64,000 bases of DNA from Candidatus Aenigmatarchaeota archaeon (GTDB lineage Archaea; Aenigmatarchaeota; Aenigmatarchaeia; CG10238-14; SCSR01). How positions within the stretch are numbered: the stretch's first letter is position 1; each line of letters begins with the position of its first letter. This document shows positions 1,398 to 44,911 of this stretch, one piece after another. The notes beneath the pieces are model-generated. The model saw nothing but the letters and a program-made list of their open reading frames with translations, had not been told where the DNA came from and did no database searches. Both the position numbers and the translations under genes were made by a program. The stretch spans positions 1,521-65,520 of the forward strand of contig JACQIA010000002.1 in assembly GCA_016198705.1 (NCBI GenBank), in the 5' to 3' direction.

Positions 1398-2302
1398 AAG
1401 CCGAAGTGGGATTGCAAGGGTTTAAAACTACGAGAGAGATTATTCTAAATGATTACATGCAGATAAGACTAGACGGAAAAGTAAACGGCACAAGAATACC
1501 ACAGCCATTCTTAAAATGGGCTGGTGGCAAAAGGAATCTCATCAATGAAATTCTTGGCAAACTGCCTGAAAAATTCAACAATTATCACGAGCCTTTTATC
1601 GGCGGGGGAGCGGTTTTCTTTGCGGTTGGAAACAAGGCAAATCATTCTACAATTTCGGACAGCAATCTCGAGCTAATCATGACTTTCAAGGTAATACAGA
1701 AGAACCCAAAAGCACTCATCGAGAAACTGAAAATACACGCATCGAAGCACTCTGAAAAATATTTTAGTGAGATAAGGGGACAAGAACCTGCAGATCCAAT
1801 AGACATAGCCTCACGCATGATATACCTGAACAAGACCTGCTACAACGGGTTATATCGGACAAATAAGAATGGCAAATTCAATGTCCCTTTCGGGAAAAAC
1901 AACAGCCCCAACATTGTGCAAGAAGAAAATATTTTATCATGCCACGAGTTTCTGAAAGATACTAAAATATTATTCGGGGATTTTGAGACAATAAATCCGC
2001 AGAAGGGCGATTTTGTGTATTTAGATCCGCCCTACCACCCCACGGGCGAAATGTCCTTTACAAAATACACGAAGGAAAACTTCACGGAAAGAGACCAGTT
2101 GAGATTAAGGGACTTCATAGCAAGGCTGACAAAGAATGGCGTTTTTGTCATGCTGTCAAACTCTAATACAAAGTTCATAAATGATTTGTATGGCGACAAG
2201 AAGTTCAAGAAAGACATAGTGCTGTCGCCCAGATTCATAAACTGCAAACCGAACGAAAGAAACGAAGTGGAAGAACTTTTAATTACAAATTACCAATTGT
2301 AG
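1394..2302 (+). CDS. N6-adenine DNA methyltransferase, Dam/D12 class (alpha group)
   Basis: Motif I FLKWAGGKRNLI and motif IV DPPY (YLDPPYHPT) in Dam-like order; 302 aa. Confidence 0.85.
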   Translation: MKAEVGLQGFKTTREIILNDYMQIRLDGKVNGTRIPQPFLKWAGGKRNLINEILGKLPEKFNNYHEPFIGGGAVFFAVGNKANHSTISDSNLELIMTFKVIQKNPKALIEKLKIHASKHSEKYFSEIRGQEPADPIDIASRMIYLNKTCYNGLYRTNKNGKFNVPFGKNNSPNIVQEENILSCHEFLKDTKILFGDFETINPQKGDFVYLDPPYHPTGEMSFTKYTKENFTERDQLRLRDFIARLTKNGVFVMLSNSNTKFINDLYGDKKFKKDIVLSPRFINCKPNERNEVEELLITNYQL

Positions 2303-15073: not shown

Positions 15074-15232
15074 TCAAGGACCTAGGAACTTGCATTTACT
15101 GCAGCTATATTTAGAACTTAAATTCTTGCAATTCGCACATCTGACAATTTCCGCTTGGCCGCAATCAGGACAGTTGAAGCGGATGAAATTAGTTTTTACC
15201 AAAGTATTTACATTGCACGTACTGCATCTCAT
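15074..15232 (-). CDS. Zn-ribbon protein of the COG2888 type, co-operonic with aEF-1beta
   Basis: Own translation: MRCSTCNVNTLVKTNFIRFNCPDCGQAEIVRCANCKNLSSKYSCSKCKFLGP (52 aa, four CxxC pairs). ATG at 15230-15232 and TGA at 15074-15076, 1 nt upstream of the ef1b start; below the ORF-track size cut-off. Confidence 0.6.
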   Translation of the reverse strand: MRCSTCNVNTLVKTNFIRFNCPDCGQAEIVRCANCKNLSSKYSCSKCKFLGP

Positions 15233-15286
15233 TACATCACTTGGTTTAATTAAGTTAAAATCGTTAATTTTAATAGATTACTAAAG

Positions 15287-15372
15287 CCCCTGTCGTCTAA
15301 CCTGGACCAGGACACAAAACCTGTGTAACCCTGCGGAGGTTGGAATCCGAGTTCAAATCTCGGCGGGGGCAT
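15287..15372 (+). tRNA. tRNA, 86 nt (no encoded CCA), intron-containing. Best-fitting model is tRNA-Arg(GCG) with an 11-nt non-canonical intron between positions 29/30 (15319-15329)
   Basis: Acceptor GCCCCTG/CGGGGGC, one G-U pair; discriminator A. T-arm CCGAG-TTCAAAT-CTCGG; D-arm GTCT/GGAC with GG in an 11-nt D-loop. Removing AACCTGTGTAA yields anticodon stem CAACC/GGTTG and loop CTGCGGA (U33, GCG, A38), mature length 75 nt. A Tyr(GTA) alternative with a 7-nt canonical intron fits worse (3 extra nt, G1-C72). Confidence 0.6.
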
Positions 15373-16286
15373 CAATTCTTCAACTTAACCTTCATAAAAT
15401 CGTATGCAACTTTAGAATTAGGAAATACAACTTTAGCTTCATCCTCCAATGGCTTTGTATCAGTATATCTTCTGCTGACATGTGTTATAATCAACTGCTT
15501 GACATCAGCTTTTTTAGCCACCTCCGCCGCTTCTTTAGCTGTAGCATGATACTTCCCCCTCTCCTTATCTTCATCCAAGAATGTAGCATCATGTATCAGC
15601 AAATCCCCCTCTTTAGCAATTTTTACAACATTCTTACACACTTTGGTGTCACCTGTATAGACAACCTTTAATCCAGATTTAGAATTAGCAACTTCTGTTA
15701 TCGTGATGATCTTATTTTTATATTCAGCCTTGCCCTCCTTCTTCAATTTCTTCAACCAATATCCCCTCTTCAACCCCAATTCCTTCAATTTAGCAACATC
15801 AATATTCCATTTGTCCTTCTCTTTAAAGCAGTAAGCGGCAGAAGGAACCGTATGCAACGTTGGTATTGACAACACCTCATATTCGCTTGAGTCTAAAATT
15901 TTAGTTATCTCCTCCCCTTCAAATGGGACATTCACCGCTTCTATAGGAAACCTAAGACCGAAATACCCTAAATCAACTATATCCGCAACAAACCTTTCTG
16001 CCTCTGGCGCAAAAATCTTCAATTCCTTCTTTCTCTTTTCTAAATTCATGGTTTGAATCAAAGGAATTAGCCCAGCAAAATGGTCAGCATGCCAATGGCT
16101 GATAAAAATCTTATCTATATCCATAAAATTAATCCCAGCCAGCAACAATTGCTTCTGCGTCCCCTCGCCACAGTCAAAAAGCAATGTATCCTTTTCCTCG
16201 CCATAGTATTCCAAAATTATAGCTGAGTGATTCCTGTCTTTGCTCGGTATGCCAGATACAGTGCCCAAAAACGTGATTTCAATCAT
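15372..16286 (-). CDS. rnz: Ribonuclease Z (tRNA 3' endonuclease), short form
   Basis: Metallo-beta-lactamase motif ISHWHADH; 304 aa; directly abuts the tRNA. Confidence 0.8.
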   Translation of the reverse strand: MIEITFLGTVSGIPSKDRNHSAIILEYYGEEKDTLLFDCGEGTQKQLLLAGINFMDIDKIFISHWHADHFAGLIPLIQTMNLEKRKKELKIFAPEAERFVADIVDLGYFGLRFPIEAVNVPFEGEEITKILDSSEYEVLSIPTLHTVPSAAYCFKEKDKWNIDVAKLKELGLKRGYWLKKLKKEGKAEYKNKIITITEVANSKSGLKVVYTGDTKVCKNVVKIAKEGDLLIHDATFLDEDKERGKYHATAKEAAEVAKKADVKQLIITHVSRRYTDTKPLEDEAKVVFPNSKVAYDFMKVKLKN

Positions 16287-16565: not shown

Positions 16566-18023
16566 TTAGCTTAATTTTTCCCTCTCAAAATACTTCCTAA
16601 GGAAAACCCCGAAATCAGTGTTCCTTTGAACGACTTGCATTATCCTCTCAGTCTCAGAAAAGACCTCAAACCCGTTTGCAATCCTTTCGGCGATATGGTT
16701 TGGTATGCCTTTCGCCTTCAAAATGTCCAAAGGCTTAGTTAAGCTGTCTACAAGCTTGTCCCTAGCCGTCAAAAAGTCTCTATTAACTTCAGCAACCCAA
16801 AAGCCATCTTCCGGATAAATGCCTATAGCCTGTTCCTTATACTTGTTCAAGAAATTCTCAGCATCCTTCAAATCAAAAATGCTCGGCCCAACTTTCTTCT
16901 GCATAGCAGGCAGTTTCGATACCTCCATCTCCAAAATAGCTGTAGCGATAAACCTCTCGTCAGTAAACACATCCTTATTCAAAACTTTAAACTCATACTT
17001 GGTTTCTTCCAGTATGCTCTGCAGTCTGTCAGCAAACCTCCTTAGCTGCGGCCATAAGATATCTGGAACAACTTTAGGCGGTATGAATTTCACCACCACC
17101 AATTCGGTCCTTCTTTTCATCTGCAATTCTATCAGTTCACTCTCACCTAGAGGCTGCGTGTCTTTGCCTATCATCAACTCCAATGAAGGACTATCTAAAA
17201 ACATCTGCGCATACTTCTTGAATTTAAAAAAATTGAATGCGGATAAAGCCGCAGCTGTATTTCTTGTTTTATCCGTAGGATCTAAAAGAATCAAGGCCTG
17301 CCCTTTGAACATCTCCACAAGCTTTTGGTAATCTTGTTTGGCATAGAATTTTTCCATATCAATAATCTCCCCAGCCGTCCATTTTACAGACGCTTTCAAC
17401 ACATTCAGAAAGCTTCTATAAGCTATAATCAATAACTCGCACACATAGCCGGAATAGCCAAGCACTTTAGTATCGGCACCATACATTCCATTCGAAACTA
17501 GAAATTTCTTTAAAAGCCTGACCTCATCTGATAACCCCAACGGCAGTTTTTTTTCTATATATCGAACATGAAAGGGAGTTCTGTCAACTGCAGACTTCAA
17601 ATGTTCCGTAGAAGTGACTTCATAGCAAGGGACTATGTCGATGCTAATATCATTAATTTTTCCAGAAACATACGGATGCTCAGCATATGCTATCTCATAT
17701 TCACCCTTCAGCTTGGTAATGACAACCTTCCCAACCTGCAATCCTGTAGTCTCCAGTTGCTTTTTCGTCAGCTTTTCAGGAAATAGAGCAAAAACATCAA
17801 ACTCATTCTTGTTTGGCAGCCAAGTGTCTCGGGTAATGCTGCCGGCAAGCATGGCTTTCGCTTTATATCTCTTAGCCACCTTTTTGGTTAAGGAGAGAGT
17901 TTTGTTGGCCAAACTTTCAAGCTTCCTTCGTTGCTCCTTTGTCGGCCTTACTTGTTTCAAGGCTTCTTTGGAAATTTTATCATAATTTGTCATTTTTAAA
18001 CACTTTCCACTAGTTAAAGACAT
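16566..18023 (-). CDS. cca: CCA-adding enzyme (archaeal class I tRNA nucleotidyltransferase)
   Basis: GSITRDTWLPNKNEFDVFALF compares with class I GSxxRGTxL...DiDiF; 485 aa. Confidence 0.8.
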   Translation of the reverse strand: MSLTSGKCLKMTNYDKISKEALKQVRPTKEQRRKLESLANKTLSLTKKVAKRYKAKAMLAGSITRDTWLPNKNEFDVFALFPEKLTKKQLETTGLQVGKVVITKLKGEYEIAYAEHPYVSGKINDISIDIVPCYEVTSTEHLKSAVDRTPFHVRYIEKKLPLGLSDEVRLLKKFLVSNGMYGADTKVLGYSGYVCELLIIAYRSFLNVLKASVKWTAGEIIDMEKFYAKQDYQKLVEMFKGQALILLDPTDKTRNTAAALSAFNFFKFKKYAQMFLDSPSLELMIGKDTQPLGESELIELQMKRRTELVVVKFIPPKVVPDILWPQLRRFADRLQSILEETKYEFKVLNKDVFTDERFIATAILEMEVSKLPAMQKKVGPSIFDLKDAENFLNKYKEQAIGIYPEDGFWVAEVNRDFLTARDKLVDSLTKPLDILKAKGIPNHIAERIANGFEVFSETERIMQVVQRNTDFGVFLRKYFEREKLS

Positions 18024-44807: not shown

Positions 44808-44911
44808 GCCTTCGTAGCTCAGCTTGGATAGAGCAGCTCACATGATTGGCTGAACCTTCTATCTGTCTGGGAGCAAGGAGAAGGTCGAGGGTTCAAATCC
44901 CTCCGAGGGCA
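44808..44911 (+). tRNA. tRNA, 104 nt, intron-containing; identity unresolved
   Basis: Acceptor GCCTTCG/CGAGGGC (one G-U); discriminator A; T-arm GAGGG-TTCAAAT-CCCTC; variable loop AGGTC; D-arm GCTC-AGCTTGGATA-GAGC. About 29 extra nt lie between position 26 and the variable loop, including a 6-bp helix CCTTCT/AGAAGG. No single canonical 37/38 intron gives a clean anticodon arm. Confidence 0.65.

Follow-up and report, generated by a model that had tools for sequence, protein, structure and literature searches.

The interval 15286-15371 of the window (the whole 64-kb stretch of DNA that was analysed) very probably encodes a functional tRNA-Arg(GCG) that is spliced to remove an 11-nt intron of the bulge-helix-loop (BHL) type from position 29/30. 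Judged by its motif, this intron is predicted to lie in the 5′ strand of the anticodon stem and to belong to the protein-spliced class, which is of bulge-helix-bulge (BHB) type. Briefly, by analogy with established archaeal tRNA splicing, the precursor would fold at 15308-15333 into a relaxed BHB motif, EndA would cleave after the second nucleotide of each bulge (15317 and 15328), and an RtcB-type ligase would join the exons. The 3′ end would be trimmed by RNase Z and CCA would be added by the CCA-adding enzyme, both of which are encoded beside the gene, and the end product would be a 75-nt tRNA reading the CGY arginine codons. The parts of the gene are assigned as follows.

15286..15371, + strand: intron-containing tRNA-Arg(GCG) (RF00005, 34.7 bits; arm scanner)
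15286..15317, + strand: predicted 5′ exon, positions 1-29 (acceptor 5′ strand, D arm, A26, C27 A28 A29), from the ARAGORN cloverleaf after excision and the BHB cut
15318..15328, + strand: predicted 11-nt intron AACCUGUGUAA at position 29/30, from the sole BHB-like motif that gives a tRNA
15329..15371, + strand: predicted 3′ exon, positions 30-73 (C30 C31, CUGCGGA, GGUUG, variable loop GAAU, T arm, acceptor 3′ strand, A73)
15333..15335, + strand: anticodon GCG, positions 34-36, with C32 U33 before it and G37 A38 after it

The gene belongs to a member of the Aenigmarchaeota (DPANN), comprises 86 nt on the forward strand corresponding to tRNA positions 1-73, and lacks CCA at its encoded 3′ end. 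Its acceptor stem has 7 bp (GCCCCUG/CGGGGGC) and is followed by the discriminator A (A73). The D arm consists of GUCU, the loop AACCUGGACCA and GGAC, and the T arm of CCGAG, UUCAAAU and CUCGG. The Rfam model RF00005 matched 15286-15371 at 34.7 bits (gathering threshold 29) with model positions 1-71 of 71 aligned, and the E-value was 6.4e-6 in a 261-nt search, or ~1.6e-3 when scaled to the 64-kb window. In this alignment the anticodon arm holds 22 nt, where the model expects 11. The same interval was detected by our own scanner for acceptor, T and D arms; it was missed by an Rfam scan of the whole window with default fast filters, and ARAGORN made no call on it with the intron option either on or off. 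An identical 86 nt was assembled independently from two runs (assembly L001 from SRR12113383 and assembly L002 from SRR12113384), which rules out an assembly artefact. The G+C content of the window is 37.8%, versus 61% for the spliced tRNA. The original prediction had described an 86-nt tRNA gene with canonical acceptor, D and T arms and an anticodon region 11 nt too long; all of this agrees with the sequence and the RF00005 alignment, but its limits of 15287-15372 drop G1 and add a T at the other end.

The local gene order is L21e, Rpb4, DUF655, PGI, a 70-aa ORF, EF-1beta, the tRNA, RNase Z, a 66-aa ORF and the CCA-adding enzyme. A “Candidatus Aenigmarchaeota archaeon” MAG encodes a protein with 100% identity to the RNase Z at 15372-16286 (minus strand), and the stop codon of this convergent gene abuts A73 (15371) with zero spacer. 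Beyond it lies the gene for the CCA-adding enzyme (16566-18023, minus strand), which places two 3′-end maturation enzymes beside a CCA-less tRNA gene. The arrangement of tRNA, RNase Z and CCA-adding enzyme is kept in L001 and in L044-L048. Between EF-1beta and the tRNA there is an apparent Cys-rich, zinc-ribbon-like ORF of less than 60 aa (15090-15235, minus strand), below the 60-aa filter of the ORF list and conserved in L044-L047; the plus-strand ORF at 15090-15284 is probably spurious.

Excision product and splicing motif

The insert AACCTGTGTAA occupies positions 15318-15328 of the window. After its removal in silico, ARAGORN called a 75-nt tRNA-Arg(GCG) with a 7-bp acceptor stem, a 4-bp D stem, a 5-bp anticodon stem and a 5-bp T stem, all free of mismatches. 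The spliced anticodon arm combines the stem CAACC/GGUUG with the 7-nt loop CUGCGGA (C32 U33 G34 C35 G36 G37 A38), and the predicted junction joins ACACAA to CCCUGCGG. The elements A20 and C35 are identity determinants of tRNA-Arg for ArgRS. In the product, an A (A20) follows G18 G19 in the D loop, C35 is present, and GCG occupies positions 34-36 of a 7-nt loop with U33 before it and a purine at 37. In the gene, the loop CUGCGGA runs directly into the 3′ strand GGUUG, which excludes an intron at 37/38; the original prediction, too, had found a standard intron at this site a poor fit. The excision proposed there, 15319-15329, was misplaced by one nucleotide against the actual 15318-15328, but the stem and loop that it was said to yield are those obtained here, and the arginine identity holds in the ARAGORN call on the spliced form and in the same-position genes of relatives, which are Arg(GCG) as well.

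When ARAGORN was tried on every deletion of 0-19 nt, it called Arg(GCG) for dozens of them. The anticodon hairpin is intact in the gene, which makes ARAGORN too permissive to place the intron, and a test of BHB geometry was therefore used. The rule comprises a 4-bp helix, 3-nt bulges on opposite strands and a cut after the second nucleotide of each bulge. With one central mismatch allowed, a scan of the 86 nt returned 54 motifs and 28 tRNA-sized products, and among these motifs only the excision of 15318-15328 leaves a tRNA. The cuts after 15317 and after 15328 correspond to position 29/30. The elements of an EndA-type BHB (a 4-bp helix, two 3-nt bulges and cuts that restore a tRNA) are all present in this unique solution, whose parts were assigned by the BHB scan.

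15308..15311, + strand: outer helix, 5′ strand CAGG (last D-loop nucleotides + G22 G23), pairing with 15330-15333 (outer 4 bp)
15312..15315, + strand: central helix, exon strand ACAC (A24 C25 A26 C27)
15316..15318, + strand: 5′ bulge AAA, predicted cut after 15317; with ACCU at 15319-15322 it makes a 7-nt terminal loop
15323..15326, + strand: central helix, intron strand GUGU
15327..15329, + strand: 3′ bulge AAC, predicted cut after 15328
15330..15333, + strand: outer helix, 3′ strand CCUG (C31 C32 U33 G34)

The 1+4+4+2 layout of the intron comprises one nucleotide from the 5′ bulge, the loop ACCU, GUGU as the helix strand and two nucleotides from the 3′ bulge. The motif falls outside the strict hBHBh′ definition, with an outer helix of 4 bp, an inner helix of 0 bp and a 5′ bulge that merges into the 4-nt loop. 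With no inner helix and a 5′ site within a loop, the motif takes the relaxed BHL form. It engages G22-C25, which requires the D stem to open. On evaluation the two conformers come out nearly equal in energy, at -25.8 kcal/mol for the motif and -25.0 kcal/mol for the cloverleaf-like form; MFE folding without constraints gives a rod unlike a tRNA (-39.1 kcal/mol, z = -3.7), which matches neither conformer and is uninformative. A possible fifth pair, A15316-U15322, could distort the 5′ site. The original prediction had seen a hairpin of ACACA with UGUGU here and likened it to relaxed BHB substrates at 29/30. The independent BHB scan arrives at precisely the excision it proposed, and four of the five hairpin pairs serve as the central helix, but A15316 sits in the 5′ bulge and loop instead of being paired.

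Excisions at 27/28, 28/29 and 29/30 yield the same product, and hence the sequence alone cannot separate them; only the BHB geometry picks 29/30. With the exons fixed, a motif giving the exact excision arose by chance in 0.12-0.17% of shuffled introns and in 0.34-0.37% of random 11-mers, while 0.10% of random 11-mers inserted anywhere in the tRNA formed an exactly excising motif.

The whole-window scan found one other tRNA and no third one. This gene (44808-44911, plus strand, 104 nt, Rfam 44.5 bits) is a tRNA-Arg(UCU) from which the removal of two introns gives a 75-nt product.

44840-44854, + strand: 15-nt intron at 30/31, strict BHB with helix CAGC/GCUG, bulges UCA and AAC, outer helix 3 bp and inner helix 2 bp
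44862-44875, + strand: 14-nt intron at 37/38, helix CUUC/GGAG

The mature stem contains a G27-A43 mismatch, and with its intron option switched on ARAGORN wrongly reports the gene as Asp(GUC). A relaxed enumeration of double introns returned hundreds of spurious solutions, and the case was solved with the strict list and manual reasoning. Because this gene needs an excision at 30/31, the organism must be able to remove introns that interrupt the anticodon stem on its 5′ side.

Intron positions among relatives

Related loci were fetched via RNase Z homologues and supplemented with closer relatives and two metagenome matches (L049 and L050). As the tRNA bodies differ, BLAST of the tRNA on the RNase Z loci gave few relatives; a structural scanner was able to find the relatives. 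In many Aenigmatarchaeota MAGs, tRNA-Arg(GCG) lies downstream of RNase Z and convergent with it. Among the loci examined, 10 genes are intronless, 12 have an intron at 37/38 only, L017 has one at 8/9, L010 has introns at 29/30 and 37/38, and the window has one at 29/30; three distinct insertion sites are seen in a MAFFT alignment. After intron removal the isoacceptor relatives have 74 nt.

As a positive control, the BHB rule recovers introns of 10-14 nt at 37/38 in 12 Aenigmatarchaeota tRNA-Arg(GCG) genes. The central helix of these introns pairs UUGC with GUGA, GCAA or GUAA in 11 of the 12, and in L023 it is CUGC/GAAG with 3/4 pairs. The window intron shares its 1+4+4+2 layout with the 11-nt introns found at 37/38 in L005 and L043. 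Homology between the window intron and the 37/38 introns, considered for their common GUG..AA, was rejected: GUGU is fully set by its pairing with the exon ACAC, which makes the likeness uninformative.

The intron at 29/30 recurs in one further instance, L010, with a change that preserves the structure. The gene at 1539-1634 (minus strand) of L010 is a 96-nt tRNA-Arg(GCG) with two 11-nt introns, at 29/30 and at 37/38. Its 29/30 motif falls on the same exon positions as in the window, with the outer helix UAGG/CCUG and the central helix ACGU/GCGG (3/4 bp, one mismatch). Compared with the window, A26-U of the central helix is replaced by G26-C, a compensatory change, and C27-G by U27-G. The predicted junction sequence ACACAACCCUGCGGAGGUUG is present in intronless genes, and the metagenomic, intronless tRNA-Arg(GCG) genes of L049 and L050 include ACACAACCCTGCGGAGGTTG, in which the predicted junction and anticodon arm are reproduced exactly. 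In L017 (3954-4041, minus strand), the tRNA-Arg(GCG) is interrupted between positions 8 and 9 by the 14-nt intron AACAUCAUGAGGAA, within a BHB-like motif that has the helix CCUC/GAGG and an outer helix of just 2 bp.

The segments L046/L047 2416-2501 (minus strand) and window 15230-15390 represent the same locus, with flanks ~90% alike (by eye) and RNase Z 84% identical. The tRNA of L046/L047 has a 12-nt intron at 37/38, and its D, anticodon and T stems differ from those of the window. This comparison suggests intron relocation or tRNA gene replacement between close relatives, and the fact that close relatives differ in where this one orthologous gene carries its intron hints at intron turnover. 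A rapid turnover of 10-14-nt mini-introns in Aenigmatarchaeota tRNA-Arg(GCG) is a tentative reading that we regard as possible and rather doubtful. If true, it would suggest that introns are actively being gained or moved, or the gene replaced, in a DPANN lineage, a process akin to the transposition of introns that has been put forward for Thermoproteales. It would likewise imply that minimal bulge-helix-loop substrates are routinely processed by the splicing endonuclease. The natural series of genes (no intron, 37/38, 29/30, both, 8/9) could be used for studying tRNA intron movement.

Several further observations were made at these loci. The 29/30 intron of L010, AUAUUGCGGAG, includes UUGCGGA, a copy of the anticodon loop of the phylum's other tRNA-Arg(GCG) type. 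Over-long tRNA candidates in Aenigmatarchaeota and related MAGs (L010 4567-4661, 95 nt; L014 4364-4484, 121 nt; L008 4188-4268, 81 nt; all on the minus strand) presumably carry one or more introns. In L044 2416-2720, where RNase Z is 85% identical, there are ~230 nt extra between RNase Z and tRNA-Arg(GCG), including a perfect hairpin CTGTGGGCTTCAGCCCACAG.

Alternative readings

The gene might be a pseudogene, unused or decaying, in which an 11-nt insertion broke the anticodon stem. Such a gene would fit the missing calls by ARAGORN and by the default Rfam scan, the different build of the closest syntenic relatives (L046/L047 and L045, with the intron at 37/38) and the short AACC repeat that flanks the insert. 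We consider it very unlikely, however, because all arms are intact with zero mismatches after excision and the splicing motif lies in exact register, for which the chance is 0.1-0.4%. Moreover, the architecture recurs at the identical position in L010, the gene fills a conserved tRNA-Arg(GCG) slot beside RNase Z, and the other tRNA of the window likewise needs a non-canonical excision. Removal of the 11 nt at 26/27 (15315-15325, U27-G43), 27/28 or 28/29 instead of 29/30 is highly improbable. Only the cuts between 15317 and 15318 and between 15328 and 15329 lie two nucleotides into the bulges of a motif with a 4-bp helix, and the intronless L049 and L050 carry C27, not U27, even though excising 15316-15326 or 15317-15327 leaves an identical mature sequence and the removal of 15315-15325 gives a stem UAACC/GGUUG that ARAGORN still accepts as Arg(GCG).

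In the gene, UAACC-CUGCGGA-GGUUG is uninterrupted and the sequence upstream of it can form a hairpin of 5 bp; the extra nucleotides might be retained as a hairpin ACACA/UGUGU between the D and anticodon arms, above an anticodon stem UAACC/GGUUG. This arrangement is even less probable: the hairpin takes A24 and C25 away from the D stem, it would leave the exact BHB register to coincidence, the isoacceptor relatives have 74 nt without introns, and we know of no tRNA class with an insertion at 26/27. The lowest probability of all goes to a tRNA of different identity with a canonical 37/38 intron, a candidate that is effectively refuted by the missing BHB motif, the contiguous loop and synteny. 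ARAGORN does give His(GUG), Pro or Gln for some arbitrary deletions, but the His(GUG) product (15325-15335 removed, checked by hand) forms 3/5 anticodon-stem pairs, and no BHB motif supports the His, Pro or Gln excisions. GCGG stands directly before A38 and the 3′ strand with nothing inserted at 37/38, and the syntenic relatives are all Arg(GCG).

Splicing enzymes and known systems

A tRNA-Arg(GCG) spliced at 29/30 would, as judged from the literature, need a broad-specificity endonuclease in this organism. Published work holds that relaxed or BHL motifs and non-canonical positions call for an EndA with a specificity loop, either an (alpha-beta)2 enzyme with a CSL or an epsilon2 enzyme with an ASL (PMC5829648, PMC6379350, PMC12397907), and efficient cutting of the relaxed or BHL form is limited to loop-bearing or (alpha-beta)2/epsilon2 EndA (PMC5829648, PMC12397907). 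Kaneta et al. described several DPANN lineages in which an alpha4 EndA with an “L3” insert accompanies more disrupted tRNA genes, in an analysis that the Aenigmarchaeota lie outside of (PMC5829648). No EndA homologue was found in the 64-kb window by phmmer with the 1a79 sequence or with an HMM of 120 EndAs (positive control L039), nor in the fetched Aenigmatarchaeota loci. The best 120 matches of the M. jannaschii EndA query, which was checked against PDB 1a79, all come from Methanococcales and Methanobacteriales.

With ARAGORN and default-filter Rfam both missing the gene, automatically annotated Aenigmarchaeota MAGs would seem to be without tRNA-Arg(GCG), which would skew inferences about completeness or codon usage. 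The present reading would also extend minimal non-canonical BHL introns to another DPANN phylum and predicts a broad-specificity EndA there. We found no description of tRNA introns of Aenigmarchaeota in the searchable literature. The proposed mechanism is textbook archaeal tRNA splicing, and multi-intron tRNAs and BHL motifs are already well described.

Non-canonical BHB introns are known from Crenarchaeota/Thermoproteales, Nanoarchaeota and ARMAN (Marck & Grosjean 2003; Sugahara 2008; review PMC4090602), and both 29/30 and 30/31 are listed archaeal non-canonical intron sites (PMC4090602). The window intron resembles them in being of the predicted protein-spliced type outside 37/38, in its 4-bp helix with 3-nt bulges and in its listed position 29/30, and, as in those archaea, one tRNA can carry multiple introns, two being present in the neighbouring tRNA of the window. 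It differs from them in its host, an Aenigmarchaeota (DPANN) MAG, and in that the 11-nt intron is without an inner helix. As in relaxed BHB/BHL substrates (PMC5829648, PMC6379350, PMC12397907), the window motif combines an outer helix with one cut site in a 3-nt bulge and a second one in the loop that the 4-bp helix closes.

The 37/38 mini-introns of the orthologues (L005, L007, L043 and L046 among others) share with the window intron the isoacceptor and a similar size (10-14 nt), L046/L047 share the locus as well, and those of L005 and L043 end in AA before the 3′ exon, as the window intron does. In the 37/38 introns, it is loop nucleotides 32-35 (UUGC) that pair with the intron to form the central helix, and the outer helix is provided by the anticodon stem. 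In the window gene, by contrast, the predicted central helix is formed by A24-C27 with the intron, the outer helix pairs D-arm nucleotides with C31-G34, and the D stem would open.
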